IMG/VR virus record: IMGVR_UViG_2690316105_000023
Coordinates: 1-6,797 of that record
Source of the DNA: a virus
Taxonomy: Duplodnaviria > Heunggongvirae > Uroviricota > Caudoviricetes
Length of the DNA stretch: 6,797 bases
Direction: 5' to 3' (one strand)
A model generated the notes under the pieces. The model made no database searches. It was given only the letters and a program-made list of their open reading frames with translations, and was not told the origin of the DNA. Positions 1 to 6,797 of this stretch are shown here, piece after piece (position 1 is the stretch's first letter; the number at the start of each line of letters is the position of its first letter). Position numbers and translations under genes: made by a program.

Positions 1-315
1 TCATGATTCCACCTCTCCGGTTTTAACGTTGATGGTTGTTACCTGTTCCGCTTCGGCAATCTCCCGTTCTGTCAGCGTGGCAAAGTTTGCAGCTGCCGTT
101 GTCATGAATGCGCTTATCAGTTCGGGATTCTCCTTCGCGTATCCTTCCCGTGTGTGGCGGTCTATAACTTTGATTGCCACCTTTAGGGAAAGCTCTGTCA
201 TGTCTAACGCTTTATATTTTTGCTGTGTTCTGTCTCTGCGCATTTTGGTCATTTGTCGCCCCTGATTCATGTTTTCGGTCGGCATGTTTGTTAAGTGATT
301 TTGATGTATGCACAT
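1..315 (-). CDS. Hypothetical protein, 5' portion only (runs off the left edge)
   Basis: Open frame with two candidate starts: ATG 315 (GGGGG SD, 9-nt spacer) or ATG 252 (AGGGG SD, 6-nt spacer; MTKMRRDRTQQKYKALDMTELSLKVAIKVIDRH...). No stop within the window. Function unknown. Confidence 0.5.
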   Translation of the reverse strand: MCIHQNHLTNMPTENMNQGRQMTKMRRDRTQQKYKALDMTELSLKVAIKVIDRHTREGYAKENPELISAFMTTAAANFATLTEREIAEAEQVTTINVKTGEVES

Positions 316-361
316 TTATTTTTACCCCCTCGTTTAAAAAGTTTTAGGTTGTGGTGCACCT

Positions 362-587
362 CCTCTACCTCTCTACCTAATCATCTTTCAGGTCAGTAAT
401 GGCGCGGCTTTCAGATGGGTAGAGGGCTTTCGTGGCCCTCTACCCATCATCTACCCGCCCCTCACAAACAACCTTAATCATGGTGGAGGGGGTAGAGGGC
501 TTTTATTTGCCTTCTACCTGCCCCTCTACCCACTTATCATATTGAATAATTTATATTTATTTTCTTTAGGTAGAAGAGGTAGAGGGC
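362..587. repeat. Iteron cluster, putative origin of replication
   Basis: At least nine copies of the 7-bp core CTCTACC / GGTAGAG in both orientations: 363-369, 371-377, 418-424, 438-444, 450-455 (partial), 492-498, 512-518 (variant), 524-530, 569-575 (variant), 578-584. Includes the inverted pair GGTAGAGGGC-N7-GCCCTCTACC (418-444) and an AT-rich stretch at 532-567. Starts right after the primase stop. Confidence 0.7.
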
Positions 588-599
588 TTTTGTCTAAAA

Positions 600-2354
600 T
601 TATAAAAACGCGTCGCAATCCTCTGTTGTTGTCACATTGGTTTGCGTAAGTCCTTTAACCCTGCGCGTTATATATTCACATCCGTAAACTTTTGCCGCTG
701 GCTTCATGGCCTTGCTGAAATCAGCCACGTTTAGCGGCTTGCTTCTTCCTGCGTATGCCATAAACGCCAGATAGACGCGGTAAAGGCTGTTTCTGGTCGT
801 GTACTTCACTGAATCGCCACCGCCACCCATCATCAGGCCGCGCGCTTCCTCCAGAAAATTCAGGAACTGGCAAAACTCAATAACCGGATCCGTCTGTTGC
901 TTTATTGCCAGTGCTTCATCACCGTCACGCTGTTCCAGTAGTAAAGCCCGTGCCTTCTCAGGGTCGGCAAAGTTCGCCAGTAATCGGCGGATAATCACAG
1001 GGATTTCAGCCGCGACCTTCTCCGGCAAATCCTTGTCCTTTTCTGCCTCGCTAACGATATTGTCAAAGCGAAAAATAACCCGACGACGTGCCACGCCTCC
1101 GGCCCGTTCGGTGAATATCATCGGGTTGTTGTTGGTCGTCAGCACCACCGCCCTGATTACCGCCGTGAAACGCTTTTCATATTTCGGGTTAATTTCCACG
1201 GGGTCGCCGCCCGTGATTTTCTTGATGCCCGTTCCTTCGCCTGTATATTTCGGCTGGTCTGCCAGGACGATAAGACGACTCCCGACAACCTGCGCACGTC
1301 CACCAGCATCATCAAGCGATGTCATTTCAGCGCTTACCGTGTTCTGTTTCCCTGCCAGAAGGCTGGCTATGTGCGTGAATGTACTTTTACCGCTTCCGCC
1401 GTCTCCGGTGGCCTCAATAAACATCTGCCAGTCGTACCGGTTCGCCATAATCATGTACAGCGCGGCACATATACGCATCATCTTGCGCGGGTCTTTTCCG
1501 GCTGCGTGCTCAAGCCATTTATGAAAATTTGGCGCGTTATCGCGGATGTTCTCCCCTGGTGCTGGTGGCGTGTACTCAATACCGTTGTGCGTGGTGATCC
1601 AGTTCTCCGGCGTGTGCGGGGAAAATTCCCCCGTTTTCAGGTCAAGCGCACCATTGGCGAACGGCAACAAATCGCCGGACGGCTCGCCCATTGGTTCGGC
1701 AATAACTTTTAACGCTTCCACGGCGTTATTGATTACGCGCTTGCTGAAAGTGGCCCTGTGCTCTGAATAGATCGCCACCATTTCGCGGCTAAGTTCCATT
1801 GTGCTGACCGGACACCATACCCCGCCGCGCCATACGTGAACGATTTCACTTTCAGGATGTACGCAAACGCCATCAAAGCGATCGGCAAGCAGCTGCGCGC
1901 GCTCACTGTCCGCCATCTGCGAAAGTTGCGCCTTTTGCTTTACCGGAAGCTCAATGACCAGACCATCAGAAAGATTCTGGCGCTCACGGGCCAGATATTC
2001 GCGCCAGTTCTCCACCTTCTGACCGTGCATACCATCAGGGTAAAAATTTGCATCCTGTACGCCTGCCGCCGCCAGCTTCTGGCCAATCGCCTTTATCATT
2101 ACTGGCGCAAGATATCCGGCCCTGAATATGCGCACGGATTTTCTGCCTTCCGGCACAATTTGCAGCTTATCCAGTTCTGATAACTGCTGCTCCCCAAGCC
2201 ACACAGGAGGCTCATTATCTCCGGCCATACGCGCATCATGTTCCTGCCATTGTTTCGCGTGTGCCCAGGCATCACTACCCGCAAAAATAATGACTTCTGT
2301 TCCTTTGTGTTTTATGCCGCGTGACTGCTGTTTTACGTTCGGTGCCAGTTTCAT
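600..2354 (-). CDS. Primase/helicase-type replication initiator (P4 alpha-like / PICI Pri-Rep-like, SF3 P-loop NTPase)
   Basis: 584-aa ORF with AGGGG SD 6 nt upstream of the ATG. Walker A motif GDGGSGKST and Walker B-like RLIVLADQ are present; the gene sits directly upstream of an iteron cluster. Confidence 0.9.
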   Translation of the reverse strand: MKLAPNVKQQSRGIKHKGTEVIIFAGSDAWAHAKQWQEHDARMAGDNEPPVWLGEQQLSELDKLQIVPEGRKSVRIFRAGYLAPVMIKAIGQKLAAAGVQDANFYPDGMHGQKVENWREYLARERQNLSDGLVIELPVKQKAQLSQMADSERAQLLADRFDGVCVHPESEIVHVWRGGVWCPVSTMELSREMVAIYSEHRATFSKRVINNAVEALKVIAEPMGEPSGDLLPFANGALDLKTGEFSPHTPENWITTHNGIEYTPPAPGENIRDNAPNFHKWLEHAAGKDPRKMMRICAALYMIMANRYDWQMFIEATGDGGSGKSTFTHIASLLAGKQNTVSAEMTSLDDAGGRAQVVGSRLIVLADQPKYTGEGTGIKKITGGDPVEINPKYEKRFTAVIRAVVLTTNNNPMIFTERAGGVARRRVIFRFDNIVSEAEKDKDLPEKVAAEIPVIIRRLLANFADPEKARALLLEQRDGDEALAIKQQTDPVIEFCQFLNFLEEARGLMMGGGGDSVKYTTRNSLYRVYLAFMAYAGRSKPLNVADFSKAMKPAAKVYGCEYITRRVKGLTQTNVTTTEDCDAFL

Positions 2355-2650
2355 TTTTTACCCCTGAATCCGTTAATCATGGTTTTCAGCTTCTGGATGT
2401 TTGCCCGTGCCCTGGCGTTGCTGGTGGGCACGTTATGCGGCGCGGTCTGTACCAGAGAAAAATCACGCCGGAACTGATAAACAGGCATCACGCAATCATA
2501 TTCGTAACCTTCACGGCGGTAGGTTACGCGCCGTTCTTCCACGCCCTTAATCATTACCGTGCCGCCGTACTGGTCGCGGTAAATATCACCGCGCGTAAAT
2601 TTAGGGTGAGTGTTGCCACTGGCAGTTAAGCCAGAATATTTAAGTTTCAT
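2351..2650 (-). CDS. Hypothetical protein, 99 aa, translationally coupled to the primase gene
   Basis: GGAG upstream of ATG 2650; its TGA stop overlaps the primase ATG (ATGA). No family recognised. Confidence 0.7.
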   Translation of the reverse strand: MKLKYSGLTASGNTHPKFTRGDIYRDQYGGTVMIKGVEERRVTYRREGYEYDCVMPVYQFRRDFSLVQTAPHNVPTSNARARANIQKLKTMINGFRGKK

Positions 2651-2655
2651 TATTT

Positions 2656-2889
2656 TTATTCTCCGGTGTGCTGTTCTTTATATCTGTCGTGCAATAGATC
2701 TATTTCTTGCAGTTCCATTATTACAGGCTCAAGAAGCGTTATTAATGCCGTGGCAATTCTTGATTTTTGTTTGTCGCGTTCATTGTCGCCAAGTGTTTCA
2801 AGCCATATGCGCAATATTTCCAGCATGTTTTCACTGTGAGAAAGTGCAAGAAATGCGCGGTCTATTGTTTCGAGGTAAATATCACGCAT
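2656..2889 (-). CDS. Hypothetical protein, 77 aa
   Basis: GAGGATG SD about 6 nt upstream of ATG 2889; the gene start overlaps the preceding gene's stop. No family recognised. Confidence 0.65.
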   Translation of the reverse strand: MRDIYLETIDRAFLALSHSENMLEILRIWLETLGDNERDKQKSRIATALITLLEPVIMELQEIDLLHDRYKEQHTGE

Positions 2890-3328
2890 GGCTTACATCC
2901 TCAGGAAATTTTCTTCTGTAACGCGCCTCTGCCACATATTCCGCATAATCGGCGGCGATATTCAGTACATCAAGTCCCGTTGATTTATATTCTTTCGTGG
3001 AAAGTAAGAAAAAAGCCGCTCTAATAAGTTCTGGCATTGACGAAAGCGCATCAGCCGCATCATCAGGAACGCCGGAAAATTCCTGTTTCAGGGAATTAAA
3101 ACGATCATCACGCATAACCCCCCCATTTTCACAATCAGCAACAAGAATATTTTTAGCGTCATTCAGCGACCGCGTAGCGGTGTATCGGATATATTCCAGG
3201 GCTAACGTTGTCCGGTCTTTCTGTTCTTCTCCCTGCGCAAGCTCTGCCGTGCATTCAATATCAATAAGCGCGTGCATCAGCGTAGTGAGTGCGGCTGCTG
3301 CGTTCGGTGTGGTTTTATTCTGCAACAT
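2882..3328 (-). CDS. Hypothetical protein, 148 aa
   Basis: GGAG 7 nt upstream of ATG 3328; stop overlaps the next start (ATGCGTGA). No family recognised by eye. Confidence 0.7.
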   Translation of the reverse strand: MLQNKTTPNAAAALTTLMHALIDIECTAELAQGEEQKDRTTLALEYIRYTATRSLNDAKNILVADCENGGVMRDDRFNSLKQEFSGVPDDAADALSSMPELIRAAFFLLSTKEYKSTGLDVLNIAADYAEYVAEARYRRKFPEDVSHA

Positions 3329-3533
3329 ATCTTAACTCCACTGAACTTACGTATTTACACGGGTTTCCTTTTACCTGTCGCACACGGTAGGAATCGTTTT
3401 TAATCACTTCCGCTATTTGCCCAAACTTTTTTACCGCTGTACGGCGGCTCTTGTAGCGGTAAGTGTTTATCTCCCTTCTGCTCATTACCGCTTCATTGTG
3501 ATATCTGGTTATCACTATCAGCACTTCAAACAT
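3315..3533 (-). CDS. Hypothetical protein (72 aa from ATG 3533; ORF track starts at a TTG at 3563)
   Basis: AGGGGG 6 nt upstream of ATG 3533; product MFEVLIVITRYHNEAVMSRREINTYRYKSRRTAVKKFGQIAEVIKNDSYRVRQVKGNPCKYVSSVELRYVAE. Its 3' end overlaps the next gene start by 14 nt. Confidence 0.6.
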   Translation of the reverse strand: MFEVLIVITRYHNEAVMSRREINTYRYKSRRTAVKKFGQIAEVIKNDSYRVRQVKGNPCKYVSSVELRYVAE

Positions 3534-3696
3534 GACGCACCCCCTGACGAATACGGGCGACAAAAATCAGATGTGCGTGCGGCAACTGGGCGCGGGCTTC
3601 GCGTTCAGTGGCTGCGGTAACGGTGTAAATATCAATGCTGCTGTGGTGGCACTGCATAAAGCGCCAGACAAAGTAAGGGCGTGCGGATACAGCCAT
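3526..3696 (-). CDS. Small protein, paralog A1 (56 aa), unknown function; may instead be the C-terminal part of a longer ORF 3526-3990
   Basis: GGGAG 8 nt upstream of ATG 3696; product MAVSARPYFVWRFMQCHHSSIDIYTVTAATEREARAQLPHAHLIFVARIRQGVRHV, paralogous to A2. The stop overlaps the ATG of the next gene (ATGTTTGA). The same frame stays open upstream to 3990/4032, so a 154/168-aa fusion is an alternative. Confidence 0.5.
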   Translation of the reverse strand: MAVSARPYFVWRFMQCHHSSIDIYTVTAATEREARAQLPHAHLIFVARIRQGVRHV

Positions 3697-3861
3697 GTGA
3701 AAGGCTCCCAATTTAATGTTAAGGAGTCTCACCACTACGCTGCTAAACGGGGTGGCGAGACGTAACAGGGTTAGCAGACTGGCAAATTGGGAAACCAGCG
3801 AGCGCAAAGGCTCCCCCGTTACGCCCCGCCATAATGCGGGTATGGGTAGGTTTACGGACAC

Positions 3862-3985
3862 AAAAAAACCGCTTATCGGATATGGGCGGCTGTCCGCCAA
3901 TTTATTCAGGCTGCTAAACCCGGTCGCCATGTGGGCGACGGGTGAAGCATACAGCCCCGTGATAATTTTTTGCAAGCGGTTTTTA
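3862..3985 (-). ncRNA. Candidate structured RNA element between the two paralogs (speculative; possible immunity/attenuator RNA)
   Basis: On the minus-strand transcript a long-range helix (AAAAACCGCUUG pairing with AAGCGGUUUUU) encloses three local hairpins: GGCUG/CAGCC, a 10-bp ACCCGUCGCC/GGCGACCGGGU stem, and GGCGG-ACAG-CCGCC. It ends in a U7 run. It overlaps an open frame (MSKNRLQK...), so a coding interpretation is not excluded. Confidence 0.2.
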
Positions 3986-4180
3986 CTCATGATGTGACCC
4001 CTGACGAATACGAGCGGCAAATACAGCAACACAACCTGACGGGCAACGGCTACGCGCTTCGCGTTCCGTCCAGGCGGTTACGTGGATGATTTGAGATTCT
4101 CCGGCACTCAGGGCCAGAAAACGCCACACAAAGGCCGTTTGTGTGTGTACAAGGTGTGTTATATGATTTACGGCAACCAT
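3983..4180 (-). CDS. Small protein, paralog A2 (65 aa), unknown function
   Basis: AGGAG 5 nt upstream of ATG 4180; product MVAVNHITHLVHTQTAFVWRFLALSAGESQIIHVTAWTEREARSRCPSGCVAVFAARIRQGSHHE. Shares FVWRF, VTAxTEREAR and ARIRQG with A1, and the nucleotide differences in the conserved core are mostly synonymous in this frame. The stop overlaps a downstream ATG (3988-3990) in an ATGAGTAA arrangement. Confidence 0.55.
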   Translation of the reverse strand: MVAVNHITHLVHTQTAFVWRFLALSAGESQIIHVTAWTEREARSRCPSGCVAVFAARIRQGSHHE

Positions 4181-4209
4181 AACGGCTCCTAGTTTACGTT
4201 GTTGGTTAG

Positions 4210-4253
4210 AAGCCCTGCGAGTGGTAATGACACTTGCGGGGCTTTGCTTTTTT
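4210..4253 (+). terminator. Plus-strand intrinsic-terminator-like hairpin inside the 5' leader of the leftward operon
   Basis: 14-bp stem AAGCCCTGCGAGTG / CACTTGCGGGGCTT (4210-4223 / 4231-4244, two G-U pairs), 7-nt loop, then TGCTTTTTT (4245-4253). On the minus-strand transcript the same sequence is a 5' UTR hairpin preceded by an A-run. Confidence 0.45.
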
Positions 4254-4269
4254 AAGTGCTCTTGTGTTA

Positions 4270-4321
4270 AGGTGACCACCTAACAATAGAAAGGCTAATT
4301 CAATAGGTGACCACTTGTCAA
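4270..4321 (-). promoter_or_regulatory. Candidate leftward operon promoter with two direct-repeat operator-like sites (AGGTGACCAC)
   Basis: Minus strand: perfect -35 TTGACA (plus coords 4316-4321), 18-bp spacer, -10 TAGCCT (4292-4297). Identical 10-mers AGGTGACCAC at 4270-4279 and 4305-4314, each containing the GGTNACC palindrome, lie in the spacer and just downstream of the predicted start site. Confidence 0.4.
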
Positions 4322-4506
4322 CAATCAAACGCGATAAAAGCCCTAAAGGGGACGGGCAATCCCCACAATTCAGAATGCGAATTTCTCCAGAGCTAAAAGA
4401 GCAATTCGATAAAGAAGCACAGAGCGACGGCATAAGCCTAGCCAACTGGCTTAAAGAGTTGGGGCGTACTGAACTAAAGCGGCGCGGTATAGAACCCAAA
4501 GGATAA
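4315..4506 (+). CDS. Putative ribbon-helix-helix (CopG/Arc/MetJ-like) DNA-binding protein
   Basis: Segment RMRISPELKEQFDKEAQSDGISLANWLKELGRTEL fits a beta-strand / helix / helix RHH pattern. Start is uncertain: TTG at 4315 (AGGTGA 4 nt upstream) or ATG at 4375 (no clear SD), giving 63 or 43 aa. Confidence 0.45.
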   Translation: MSTIKRDKSPKGDGQSPQFRMRISPELKEQFDKEAQSDGISLANWLKELGRTELKRRGIEPKG

Positions 4507-4563
4507 AAACTATCAGCGCCGTGGTGTGAGGTATTACGGCGCATTGCTATGCAGGACAACACA

Positions 4564-4737
4564 ATGACCGATAAAGAATTGACCAAAACATTATCACCGG
4601 CACGGAAAAGACGGCGCAGAAAGATAGAGCATGAATCAGAAAGATTCGCGCCATGTGCTTTTGCCCTTGAGCAATTCCTTAAAGAGTACAGGGAAAAGCG
4701 CTCATTGCAGGTATGGCAACGAACTGAACCAGACTGA
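4564..4737 (+). CDS. Hypothetical small basic protein (57 aa from ATG 4564; ORF track starts at 4549)
   Basis: ORF MTDKELTKTLSPARKRRRRKIEHESERF... with AGGA 8 nt upstream of ATG 4564 and a KRRRRK basic patch. No family recognised; kept as low-confidence because it is co-oriented with the RHH ORF and followed by the 4833-4860 terminator. Confidence 0.3.
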   Translation: MTDKELTKTLSPARKRRRRKIEHESERFAPCAFALEQFLKEYREKRSLQVWQRTEPD

Positions 4738-4832
4738 TTGCATTGCCCACCAGCCTGATAGCGGCTATCATCCCCGTGCTTATGTTTGGGATCACACACA
4801 CAAACGGCGCAGCGTGTTATCTGTTCAGAAAG

Positions 4833-4860
4833 GCGGCTCCATTTCGGGGCCGCTTTTTTT
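4833..4860 (+). terminator. Rho-independent terminator ending the short plus-strand unit
   Basis: 8-bp GC-rich stem GCGGCTCC / GGGGCCGC (4833-4840 / 4846-4853, one G-U pair), 5-nt loop ATTTC, then seven T (4854-4860). Confidence 0.65.
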
Positions 4861-5006
4861 ATGCCTGAAAAACCCCAATTTTGTGGTTTTCCAGTCTCAC
4901 CAGGGCGAACGAATCCCCGCCCACGTTCTGGCGTATATTCAATCTTCATGGTTATAGCTCTGTGTTCAGATGATTGATGTGTGGCGGCTGTGTGCCGCCA
5001 GCGTGA

Positions 5007-5195
5007 TTAATGAACTGCCTTGCAGCTATCCTTCCAGGCCAGAACCTCGGATAAAGACCAGCCAACGGAACGACCGCCAAGTTTACGACGTGATGGGAAT
5101 TGTCCGGCCTTTTCCAGGCGGTAGCGGCATGAGCGGCTAAGGCCTGTTAGCTTTTCGCATTCTTTTTCACGTATAAACCGATCAGTGCTTAACAC
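5007..5195 (-). CDS. alpA: AlpA-family phage transcriptional regulator (excisionase-like HTH)
   Basis: 62-aa ORF with the AlpA signature EKLTGLSRSCRYRLEKAGQFPSRRKLGGRSVGWSLSEVLAW. GTG start preceded by a strong SD (AAGGGGG, 5-nt spacer). It sits immediately downstream of int, as in CP4-57-type elements. Confidence 0.85.
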   Translation of the reverse strand: MLSTDRFIREKECEKLTGLSRSCRYRLEKAGQFPSRRKLGGRSVGWSLSEVLAWKDSCKAVH

Positions 5196-5256
5196 TATTG
5201 CCCCCTTTCGTTTCTTAAAGAGTTATTTCGTGTTCTATTGCGTTGGGATGTGTCTG

Positions 5257-5285
5257 ATTGTGTCAGGATGATTCAGAGTTGGCAA
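5257..5285 (-). promoter_or_regulatory. Candidate sigma70 promoter for alpA
   Basis: On the minus strand: -35 TTGCCA (plus coords 5280-5285), 17-bp spacer, -10 CACAAT (5257-5262), about 55 nt upstream of the alpA GTG. Consensus matching by eye only. Confidence 0.3.
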
Positions 5286-5354
5286 ATGTTGAGGTCGTAT
5301 GGTTTACAGAAACAGGAATAATCAGGATAAAATCATTTAAATTCATGTTAATAC

Positions 5355-5386
5355 AAAGGCATAAAATATTGTTTCATGCCTTTTTT
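5355..5386. terminator. Candidate bidirectional intrinsic terminator between int and alpA
   Basis: Perfect 8-bp stem AAAGGCAT / ATGCCTTT (5355-5362 / 5376-5383) with a 13-nt loop, followed by T-run 5381-5386 on the plus strand and by a T-rich TTGTATT on the minus strand. It lies about 200 nt downstream of the int stop on the int strand. Confidence 0.4.
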
Positions 5387-5495
5387 CTCGCTATTTAAAG
5401 AGTGATTCGCTAGTGTATAAAAAACCAGTAACACATTAAAAATCAGCTACTTATAAATCCGTACACTTTTTCGTCTCTTGTTCGTAGTTGTTCCG

Positions 5496-5525
5496 CATTG
5501 TTGCTCATTGTTGCTCATTGTTGCA
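5496..5525. repeat. Tandem 10-bp direct repeat CATTGTTGCT x3 (third copy CATTGTTGCA) in the int 3' region
   Basis: Read directly from the sequence: cattgttgct cattgttgct cattgttgca at 5496-5525, flanked by further TTGTT-rich sequence. Confidence 0.6.
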
Positions 5526-5579
5526 TGTTGTATCTGTTCGCATATCCAGTATGCGCATACTGAAAAAACACGAAAAAAA

Positions 5580-6797
5580 TTATTTTCTTCTGGCTACTGG
5601 TAGCGTGGTTACGTTTTCATGTGTTCCCGCCAGTATCCCTAACCGCTCCATCCACATATCCAGCGCATTGCGTTTAGCATCCAGATAACGGGAATGATTA
5701 TAAACTCGCTGAATTCCTGGCATCTGATGACCTGTAAGCTGCTCCACGACATGCGGATCAACGCCTAAATCGTTCAGCATGGTTGTAAAGGTGCGCCGGA
5801 TGTCATGCAGTGACCAGTGAGGATGATTAAGCCTCCTGTGCGCTAATCTTCCATACTGCGATACGCTGGCCTCCTGTTTCACTTCCCCCAGCAATAAGCC
5901 CGTGTGCCTGTTCTGCTCCACCAGCTGCGTGACGAACGGCAGGATCGCTTCCGGTATGGGCCGGAATATTGCGACCTTCGTTTTGCTGTGCTCCTTCGGA
6001 ACGGTCCATAGCATTTCCGTAAAATCCCACTCCCCGATCTCCGATAGCCTCAGTTCTACCGTCCTGGCTCCGAAGACAATCAGGAGGCGGATTAACGCGA
6101 CGTAGTAAGGGGAAAATATTTTTTTGTCCAGTGCCTGCAATAATTCGCCAAGTTCTTTGTTACTTAAGACACGTTCGCTTATATCCGGTTTTTTCCCAAC
6201 GTCCGCCACGTTCAGATCGTCCAGAACGTTGCTGATTGCATAGCGCCGCCTACGGCAGAACTTAAGCGCCTGTTTGCACGCCTGTAGCACGAATCCGGCA
6301 GTAACAGGCGTTCGCTTTGCCACCTGGTCAAAACAGGCCAGCCAGTGCCGTAGCTCGCATTTATCCAGCGGCATAGCACCAATCTGCTGTATTACGTGAT
6401 TATTAAGTCGCCTTTTCAGGGCGATATAATCCACGCGGTTTTCCTTTACGTAATACTCAAGCCAGTAGGTGAGCGCATCGCCAACCGTTACGGGCTTTAA
6501 CGCTTCCTGTACGGTGTAATTCATCTCATGACGTGGATTTTTCCCCTCAGCCAGCCATGTGCGACACTGTGCGGCTTTTTCCCTGGCTGCTTTCAGGCTC
6601 AGATCAGGATAACTTCCCAGCTTAATGCGTTCGGGTCGTGTCTCCCTTCCCGTTCCGGCCCTGTATGTGAAATACCAGGTCAATTTCCCTGATGTTAAAT
6701 ATTTCACGCTCAGGTTTCCGCCATCACTATAAAACGTGTTTTTCTCCGCTGGCTTACCATGAAGTTTCCTTAGCAAGGTATCGCTCAGTTTGTTCAT
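5580..6797 (-). CDS. int: Tyrosine recombinase / site-specific integrase, P4-type
   Basis: 405-aa ORF. N-terminus MNKLSDTLLRKLHGKPAEKNTFYSDGGNLSVKYLTSGKLTWYFTYR is typical of the P4-integrase arm-binding domain; C-terminus has the catalytic-core signature (HDIRRTF ... HQMPGIQRVYNHSRY). The ATG lies on the last three bases of the window, so the upstream RBS and promoter are not visible. Confidence 0.93.
   Translation of the reverse strand: MNKLSDTLLRKLHGKPAEKNTFYSDGGNLSVKYLTSGKLTWYFTYRAGTGRETRPERIKLGSYPDLSLKAAREKAAQCRTWLAEGKNPRHEMNYTVQEALKPVTVGDALTYWLEYYVKENRVDYIALKRRLNNHVIQQIGAMPLDKCELRHWLACFDQVAKRTPVTAGFVLQACKQALKFCRRRRYAISNVLDDLNVADVGKKPDISERVLSNKELGELLQALDKKIFSPYYVALIRLLIVFGARTVELRLSEIGEWDFTEMLWTVPKEHSKTKVAIFRPIPEAILPFVTQLVEQNRHTGLLLGEVKQEASVSQYGRLAHRRLNHPHWSLHDIRRTFTTMLNDLGVDPHVVEQLTGHQMPGIQRVYNHSRYLDAKRNALDMWMERLGILAGTHENVTTLPVARRK

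Follow-up and report, generated by a model that had tools for sequence, protein, structure and literature searches.

The DNA analysed here (6,797 nucleotides, positions 1 to 6,797 of the IMG/VR virus record IMGVR_UViG_2690316105_000023; hereafter the window) probably encodes an Arc-like repressor that shuts off two divergent promoters, P_L and P_R, via two operators, O1 and O2, and that may be bypassed during induction. Judged from its int, alpA and P4-type primase genes, the window belongs to a Gram-negative phage-inducible chromosomal island (PICI) and carries its regulatory core. Its minus strand encodes a tyrosine integrase, AlpA, a run of small genes up to one for a DUF4222 protein and then a P4-family primase, which is the co-oriented set of int, alpA and primase/replicase genes that marks Gram-negative PICIs. 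The best reading of the sequence is that a self-contained regulatory cassette (~4250-4508) lies between alpA and the replication operon. At 99.4% identity, positions 3998-4800 match 'prophage Sp7' of Escherichia coli O157:H7 Sakai and also its counterpart in EDL933; the island contains capsid, protease, portal and packaging genes. Sp7 corresponds to EcCIEDL933, the prototype capsid-forming PICI (bioRxiv 10.1101/2022.09.08.507074). Helper-phage induction and packaging were shown experimentally for EcCIEDL933 and EcCICFT073, which are other copies than the one in the window (PMC6092414; bioRxiv 10.1101/2022.09.08.507074). Gram-negative PICIs are transcribed unidirectionally, and whether they possess a global repressor has been called 'unclear' (PMC6092414). 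The comparative data support well that the cassette encodes a ribbon-helix-helix repressor with two operators on the leftward promoter P_L; it would be of the Arc-like repressor type, located where the field's PICI model has no repressor.

The RHH gene and the predicted fold of its product

The candidate repressor is a 63-amino-acid ribbon-helix-helix (RHH) protein, encoded at 4315..4506 (+) with a TTG start codon. For comparison, 80 loci were fetched from other species and 10 from E. coli; they are referred to by L numbers below. In 79 distinct relatives the frame contained no stop (0/79), pN/pS was 0.29 over 42 alignable codons, and the entropy at the three codon positions was 0.65, 0.52 and 1.60. 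By these comparative measures, 4315..4506 (+) is a real gene. Together with the predicted fold, they bear out the original prediction, made from the letters of the window alone, that this plus-strand open reading frame (ORF) with an RHH-like pattern is translated. Translation must start at the TTG at 4315, because the ATG at 4375 falls within the beta-strand of the protein; the relatives have ATG or GTG at the position of the TTG. The invariant N-terminus M-S-T (4315-4323) is encoded where the opposite strand carries the −35 hexamer of the divergent promoter. As a consequence of this overlap, 4315-4323 is constrained as start codon, as codons 2 and 3, as −35 and as operator edge.

The homologues are proteins of 63-64 amino acids from Enterobacterales, which NCBI names 'HicB family antitoxin'. 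The family is small, with 139 representatives at E <= 1e-3 among 1.84 billion, and our literature search found no publication describing this RHH protein. PHROG 228, annotated 'Arc-like repressor', matches it at 5e-7, and no Pfam Arc match was obtained at E <= 0.1. When the single sequence was searched against the PDB, Arc was found at E 0.2 only. With the family profile, P22 Arc (E 0.009) and Mnt (E 0.13) were the best solved relatives.

An AlphaFold (AF2) model of the monomer had a pLDDT of 82.9 overall and above 90 over residues 21-60. It consists of an extended segment at 17-24 (strand PQFRMRIS) followed by helices at 25-37 and 42-56, the N-terminal strand and two helices of an RHH fold. 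In Foldseek the top matches were all Arc structures (TM 0.91, rmsd 1.0 Å over 44 residues, 27% identity). They were followed by CopG, AmrZ, NikA and RHH antitoxins, and nearly all of the 50 listed matches were RHH proteins. Structure prediction and profile search, which had been proposed as a check for an RHH fold, both gave Arc as the best match. The fold predicted by the model is ribbon-helix-helix, closest to P22 Arc.

In the strand Q-F-R-M-R-I, polar residues facing outward alternate with hydrophobic ones facing inward, as in the base-reading strand of RHH proteins; positions 18 and 20 are variable and position 22 is an invariant Arg. When PQFNLRW of Arc is aligned to PQFRMRI, Gln18, Arg20 and Arg22 fall at the positions of Arc Gln9, Asn11 and Arg13. 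The DNA-contact residues Gln9 and Asn11 of Arc are therefore matched by residues 18 and 20. P22 Arc, which belongs to the immI region together with Mnt, thus resembles the RHH protein in size class, in the PQFxxR strand and in its DNA-reading positions.

Putative operators and promoters, and exchange of the cassette

The window contains exactly two copies of the 10-mer AGGTGACCAC, which lie on the plus strand at 4270-4279 and 4305-4314. The original prediction had described these two identical 10-mers as each containing a GGTNACC palindrome. Both exact copies are present, but the relevant symmetry is that of a 12-bp dyad of the general form AGGTGn/nCACCT. Across the family, this 12-mer is symmetric about the point between its bases 6 and 7, which makes GGTNACC incidental, and relatives have perfect palindromes in the same register, for instance AGGTAC/GTACCT and AGGTGT/ACACCT. 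The putative operator O1 (AGGTGACCACCT, half-sites AGGTGA and CCACCT) is located at 4270..4281. The putative operator O2 (AGGTGACCACTT, half-sites AGGTGA and CCACTT) is located at 4305..4316, in the spacer of P_L and abutting its −35. The left arm of O2, AGGTGA, doubles as a Shine-Dalgarno (SD) sequence, and the right arm extends to the TTG start codon. The centres of O1 and O2 are 35 bp apart (33-35 bp in relatives).

Nearly all loci anchored on the start codon have two copies of the 12-bp dyad, the second of which ends in the start codon. In the 83 loci with a recognisable beta-strand, both dyads share the same core, and the core differs by strand class. We defined these classes by the variable, outward-facing strand residues x1 and x2 in P-x1-F-x2-(M/I/V)-R (positions 18 and 20). 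Class Q,R has the core GTGACCAC and the dyad AGGTGACCACCT, like O1 in the window. Core and dyad are GTGGCCAC and AGGTGGCCACCT in class Q,K, GTGTACAC and AGGTGTACACCT in class P,H, and GTACGTAC and AGGTACGTACCT in class T,Q. The remaining classes have two dyads each: GGTGTGTACC and GGTACACAC with core GTGTGTAC in class A,Q, GGTATAGACC and GGTCTATAC with core GTATAGAC in class M or L,N, and GTATGGACC and GGTCCATAC with core GTATGGAC in class I,S. While both dyads change in concert, the 23 bp between the two sites drift. The outer GGT of the dyads and Arg22 are invariant across loci. Residue 18 shares 1.52 of 1.61 bits with operator class and residue 20 shares 1.32 of 1.36 bits, the highest ratios in the protein. 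Under linkage alone, the signal would be expected evenly in all variable columns.

On the minus strand, the predicted P_L has a −35 TTGACA at 4316..4321 (TGTCAA on the plus strand), as had been claimed for the leftward operon. The heptamer TGTCAAC is nearly invariant in the 42 distinct relatives aligned here. Since it is the minus-strand −35 placed at the start codon, it accounts for the invariant M-S-T: the −35 overlaps codons 1-3 of the RHH gene, and it is kept in cassettes of the YlcI type, where it is non-coding. After a spacer of 18 nt follows the −10 TAGCCT (4292..4297, −), which shows the column pattern T-A-n-n-n-T, typical of a sigma-70 −10, in an otherwise unconstrained spacer. On the plus strand, P_R would have an extended −10 (TG-t-TAAGGT) at 4265..4273, conserved as TGnTAAgGT in the same relatives, and a −35-like TTGCTT at 4244-4249. 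Column conservation thus marks TTGACA-N18-TAnnnT on one strand and TGnTAAgGT on the other. We infer from this that leftward transcription starts near 4285 and rightward transcription near 4280. O2 would then lie in the spacer of P_L and O1 at about +5 to +16 of its start, in agreement with the claim that the repeats sit in the −35/−10 spacer and just past the start site. In addition, O1 overlaps the −10 and the start of P_R.

The best whole-window matches in E. coli are the O103:H2 island and related ones (96% coverage, 94.8% identity). In the alignment with L090, identity ends at ~4250, just past a leader hairpin, and resumes at ~4508 with ACTATCAGCGCCGTGG, directly behind the stop codon. Between these points, O103:H2-type islands carry an RHH gene of the YlcI/YnfO type and different repeats. 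In islands that are ~95% identical elsewhere, a different RHH protein thus comes with different repeats. The repeats are TGTCAGCCAC in three copies in L003, TGTAATG/CATTACA in L004, GTAAGAC/GTCTTAC in L005 and AGGTGTGGCCCAC in two copies (plus one) in EcCICFT073 (L089). In each of these four, one site lies in the spacer by the retained TTGAC(A/G) and one just past the −10. An RHH cassette was present in 9/9 E. coli loci examined, and proteins of the YlcI/YnfO type fill the same slot in sister islands, including EcCICFT073. The YlcI/YnfO type (DUF3950) is a different sequence family, matching PHROG 949/6522 as opposed to PHROG 228 for the window protein. In its cassettes the two sites on P_L are kept, and a third is located on P_R. 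From these comparisons, operators and protein gene travel as one unit. Concerted change of the sites, tracking by residues 18 and 20 and cassette exchange back the claim that the ORF protein acts on the repeats, and the identification of O1 and O2 as operators of the RHH protein is well supported at this level.

Proposed control and alternative explanations

In the mechanism that we propose, one RHH dimer would bind each dyad via its two-stranded beta-sheet, with Arg22 reading the outer GG and residues 18 and 20 reading the inner bases. Binding of an RHH dimer to palindromic DNA is indirectly backed by the dyad operators and the co-variation. O2, in the P_L spacer by the −35, and O1, over the first transcribed bases of P_L, would when occupied block transcription of an icd-like gene, the C4 RNA, a second icd-like gene, the small genes, the DUF4222 gene and the primase gene. 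As O1 covers the extended −10 and start of P_R, the RHH protein would also limit its own synthesis, and the two promoters appear to overlap too closely for RNA polymerase on both. The cassette would in this way set the resting state, with P_L off and a self-limited repressor level. Further layers would act downstream, namely a probable cis-antisense RNA at the ribosome site of the first gene and, in this island, also a C4 RNA of the P1/P4 type.

Induction most likely does not proceed via the RHH protein but by the helper turning on alpA. AlpA-dependent leftward transcription could read through the terminator at 4860-4833 and the cassette into the icd-primase operon. P_L would then be bypassed, and the repressor gene would be transcribed in antisense. 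The original prediction had taken the RHH ORF for the only nearby DNA-binding candidate and missed AlpA, encoded at 5195..5007. AlpA is the activator needed for induction and is sufficient when overexpressed; helper phages turn on alpA (PMC6092414). The requirement for alpA was confirmed for EcCIEDL933 (bioRxiv 10.1101/2022.09.08.507074). An AlpA homologue of Pseudomonas aeruginosa is a processive antiterminator (PMC7969949, PMC9371919), which we take as a lead for the bypass step and not as a result.

Several known systems resemble parts of this arrangement. P22 Arc sits at the overlapping divergent promoters Pant/Pmnt and represses both, and the geometry of the sites at P_L and P_R predicts repression of both promoters likewise. 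However, Arc occupies a single operator of 21 bp as a dimer of dimers, whereas the window has two separate 12-bp dyads 35 bp apart. Moreover, arc heads the operon under its control, whereas the RHH gene of the window is divergent from its target and has its start codon within the target's −35. In the case of MetJ, one RHH dimer binds per 8-bp palindromic metbox. By analogy, one RHH dimer per dyad of 8-12 bp is the likely stoichiometry at the window sites, although metboxes are tandem and adjacent and require a corepressor, while the window sites are 35 bp apart. Plasmid pMV158 combines CopG, a small RHH repressor of the replication operon promoter, with the counter-transcribed RNA II over a downstream ribosome site. 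The likeness lies in the RHH repressor, CopG being among the Foldseek matches, and in the antisense RNA over a ribosome site, which in the window is putative. In pMV158, copG is co-transcribed with repB, whereas the RHH gene is divergent.

Several observations weigh against the proposed repressor and its operators. A sigma-70 consensus scan called neither P_L nor P_R, because both −10 hexamers are weak and match at only 3/6 positions. An exact 10-mer repeated within 60 nt was found in 143/500 dinucleotide shuffles of the window; the repeat is convincing because of its position and the comparative data, the single-sequence statistic being weak. Since gene and operators are adjacent, some co-variation is expected from linkage alone, and part of the conservation of the repeats has another cause, as AGGT in O1 and O2 also serves as −10 and SD. 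The spacing of 35 bp amounts to 3.3 helical turns and does not favour cooperative binding between O1 and O2. Co-resident islands of the same class exist: L053, L067 and L082 (three in Pectobacterium fontis), L051/L054, L059/L063 and L060/L066. They carry identical operators (GTACGTAC), so that one repressor pool would act on all of them, which weakens hetero-immunity, in which classes diverge so that islands sharing a host do not repress each other, as a simple driver of class diversity. Published work reports the activator AlpA and found no repressor (PMC6092414).

Among the alternatives, the one we give most room, while judging it unlikely, is a master switch like Stl, in which the RHH protein alone silences the island and a helper-phage protein removes it to induce. 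What supports such a helper-released switch is the layout: a divergent repressor beside the replication operon is the arrangement of Gram-positive PICIs (SaPIs), where Stl/Rpr is encoded divergently from the replication operon with intergenic operators (PMC6092414). The RHH cassette, in the same kind of element, is likewise divergent with intergenic sites, but its protein has an RHH rather than a helix-turn-helix fold. The operator positions fit repression, and the conserved tails (KRDKSPKG.G, GIEPKG) could be contact surfaces. Stl/Rpr proteins are much larger helix-turn-helix proteins with a domain bound by helper proteins. The window protein, by contrast, is an RHH protein of 63 amino acids without a separate sensor domain or a known helper partner, and homologues or partners in phage genomes are few (5 records). 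Moreover, the documented Gram-negative trigger is AlpA and not derepression: alpA is required for EcCICFT073 and EcCIEDL933 to be induced, and overexpression of AlpA alone is enough for excision and replication when no helper is present (PMC6092414; 10.1101/2022.09.08.507074). The further blocks downstream, the C4 RNA and the probable antisense RNA, also speak against a switch that acts alone. Rather improbable, in our judgement, is that the protein only autoregulates the rightward unit (itself and variable cargo) in the manner of an antitoxin or CopG, with P_L not controlled; the finding would then be an ordinary one. The overlap of O1 with the −10 and start of P_R, the variable cargo after the RHH gene in some loci and the NCBI name of the relatives would fit this. 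The Pfam HicB match reaches 20.4 bits against a cut-off of 21 and is confined to residues 17-47, the DNA-binding region of strand and two helices; the protein lacks the HicB N-terminal domain. There is also no HicA gene or other fixed partner: most relatives have no co-directional neighbour, the gene being monocistronic in most loci and followed by variable cargo in others, which makes a toxin-antitoxin role unlikely. Against mere autoregulation stand O2, which in every class lies in the spacer of P_L in contact with the −35, and the YlcI-type cassettes, which retain both P_L sites and add a third on P_R.

Two further explanations concern the repeats and the gene. That the repeats are not protein sites, or bind AlpA, integrase or primase (as iterons), and are identical owing to overlapping constraints or chance, would draw on the shuffles and on the double use of AGGT as −10 and SD mentioned above. 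We hold this very improbable, since the variable inner bases, which serve neither a promoter nor an SD, undergo the same changes in the two sites and track residues 18 and 20, and since sites and RHH gene are swapped jointly while alpA, int and primase stay unchanged. Still less credible is that the 247-amino-acid minus-strand ORF at 4949..4206 (ECs_1576) is the real gene and the small plus-strand ORF its shadow. Sakai and many PGAP records list its product as a hypothetical protein, but its frame is interrupted in 36/79 relatives within the 42 codons tested, against 0/79 for the plus frame, and it has no family hits. In L006, PGAP calls its equivalent a pseudogene with an internal stop, and small plus-strand genes are annotated by PGAP at the same place in the sister islands L003-L007, L089 and L090. 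The comparison identifies ECs_1576 and its PGAP equivalents (window 4206-4949, −; L001 9209-9952) as the antisense shadow of the RHH gene and of orf62, the gene following it.

Beyond the window, we tentatively propose, with more doubt than confidence, that Gram-negative PICIs including EcCIEDL933 and EcCICFT073 have a divergent repressor in the form of a swappable RHH-operator cassette with a two-residue code, which AlpA overrides or bypasses. If this is true, the repressor was overlooked because its gene lacks an annotation or is masked by a spurious ORF on the other strand. In the resting island the cassette would keep the icd-primase operon silent, the designs of Gram-negative and Gram-positive islands would be closer, and a set of orthogonal mini-repressors would be at hand. 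The founding paper on Gram-negative PICIs (PMC6092414) called the reason for their difference from Gram-positive islands 'a mystery', and a conserved divergent repressor cassette at the replication operon promoter is directly relevant to the repressor question raised there. The proposal is testable with existing strains, because the cassette is present in both experimental model islands. At least seven natural protein-operator pairs, differing at two residues and two to four bases, form a compact data set on RHH recognition, and the series is a possible source of orthogonal repressors. The analysis also corrects the annotation of ECs_1576 and its PGAP equivalents, which hides the RHH gene in O157 genomes.

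Genes and RNA elements around the cassette

The tyrosine integrase is encoded at 5580..6797 (−), an ORF called integrase in matching records. The alpA gene, the published activator of induction in this island family (PMC6092414), lies at 5007..5195 (−) and matches Pfam Phage_AlpA at 5e-18. The leftward operon ends in the replication gene, encoding a P4-family primase/helicase at 600..2354 (−; Pfam D5_N, DUF5906 and Pox_D5; TIGR01613). It is preceded by the DUF4222 gene at 2351-2650 (−). Between int and alpA, three head-to-tail 10-bp units (CATTGTTGCT) are located at 5496-5525, one helical turn apart. This exact tandem repeat was found in 0/89 other loci compared; the array could represent sites for an Xis/AlpA-type protein.

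Downstream of the RHH gene and co-directional with it lies orf62 (4549..4737, +), encoding a basic protein of 62 amino acids with the stretch KRRRRK (PHROG 21027, 1.6e-15). It is near-identical in EcCICFT073 and absent or replaced in most relatives. A role of orf62 as HicA-like toxin was rejected, given the absence of a Pfam hit and of the gene itself from most relatives. The slot between the RHH gene and alpA is variable: it holds a SWIM zinc-finger protein in L006 and L007, a 128-amino-acid protein in several Pectobacterium loci and an ATPase-like ORF of 500 amino acids in L081, and it is empty in most loci. It may be a hotspot for accessory or defence genes that are expressed with the repressor. 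The RHH-orf62 unit appears to end in a strong intrinsic terminator at 4833..4860 (+), read from the sequence as an 8-bp G+C stem (GCGGCTCC/GGGGCCGC) followed by T7; the terminator scan did not report it. On the reverse strand, 4833-4860 gives a hairpin that is weaker, faces alpA and precedes CTTTCTG. Part of the leftward transcription arriving from alpA could end at this hairpin, where an antiterminator would naturally act.

The leftward operon opens with a gene for an Icd-like protein of 65 amino acids at 3983..4180 (−; NCBIfam NF033153, 63.5 bits), with the SD AGGAG at 4190..4186. It is followed by an a1/b1-type C4 target (3903..3952, −), which matches Rfam RF03163 at 44.4 bits, just under the gathering score of 46.7, and by an overlapping isrK-like match with a terminator (3939..3862, −; RF01394, 37.6 bits, gathering score 50). 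A full-length C4/CI-type antisense immunity RNA follows at 3748..3836 (−; RF01695, 74 bits, gathering score 45). It is flanked on both sides by the b-type target GTTTAGCAGC, with a copy at 3745..3736 before a second Icd-like gene (3526..3696, −; NF033153, 51.8 bits), which has an ATG and an SD. The module at 3526-4180 thus reads Icd-like gene, a1b1-type target, isrK-like terminator, C4, b-type target and Icd-like gene, and shares the order a1b1, C4, b2 and icd with P1 immI and P4 CI immunity. With a C4 RNA above the gathering score, flanking targets and a downstream icd gene, RNA immunity of the P1/P4 type is, by sequence matches, present in the leftward operon. The earlier denial of an obvious P4 (RNA immunity) arrangement does not hold, given the C4 RNA (3836..3748), the a1b1 target and the two Icd-like genes. 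C4 and isrK matches in Gram-negative PICIs were already noted (PMC10111431). In contrast to the RHH cassette, the C4 module is a separate, RNA-based and optional layer, located ~450 nt downstream of the promoter. Among the nine E. coli loci the C4 RNA is found in three (the window, L002 and L004), and it is absent from EcCIEDL933, EcCICFT073, L003 and L005-L007.

The terminator scan reported a G+C-rich hairpin with a T-run, a plus-strand intrinsic terminator, at 4209..4255 (+); in the minus-strand reading, the 5′ leader of the leftward operon contains it as a hairpin. Relatives have this hairpin with different stem sequences, and the T-run is lost in Pectobacterium-type loci. As the second of two hairpins, it would end a cis-antisense RNA unit of ~80 nt at 4162..4255 (+), with a −10 TATGAT at 4162-4167, a start near 4174 and an end near 4255, which would cover the first leftward gene at its start codon and SD. 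In 72 distinct loci TAnnnT is kept 11-16 nt before the CAT of gene 1, and each folds two hairpins. In hairpin 1, compensatory changes affect 5 pairs, and one G-U pair is valid on the plus strand only (33/35). RNAalifold on the leader recovered hairpin 1 and not hairpin 2, whose variable stems misalign, whereas each sequence alone folds hairpin 2. From these patterns we consider a cis-antisense RNA at this position probable. At a permissive threshold, Rfam gave nothing credible for 4133-4253, the single match being rnk_pseudo at E 0.19. A MIR2617 match at 507-588 was dismissed as chance.

In L008-L087, the first leftward gene is located ~130-143 nt left of the RHH start, a nearly fixed distance, and belongs to unrelated families. 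These first genes encode Icd-like proteins, a protein of ~96 amino acids (MADSHSTPD...GKWLREAGF), which is possibly SymE-like, a protein of 176 amino acids or peptides of 32-40 amino acids. All of them open with similar codons (MA..S/T..), which suggests that the conserved regulatory module extends into the 5′ end of this gene, while the remainder is swapped.

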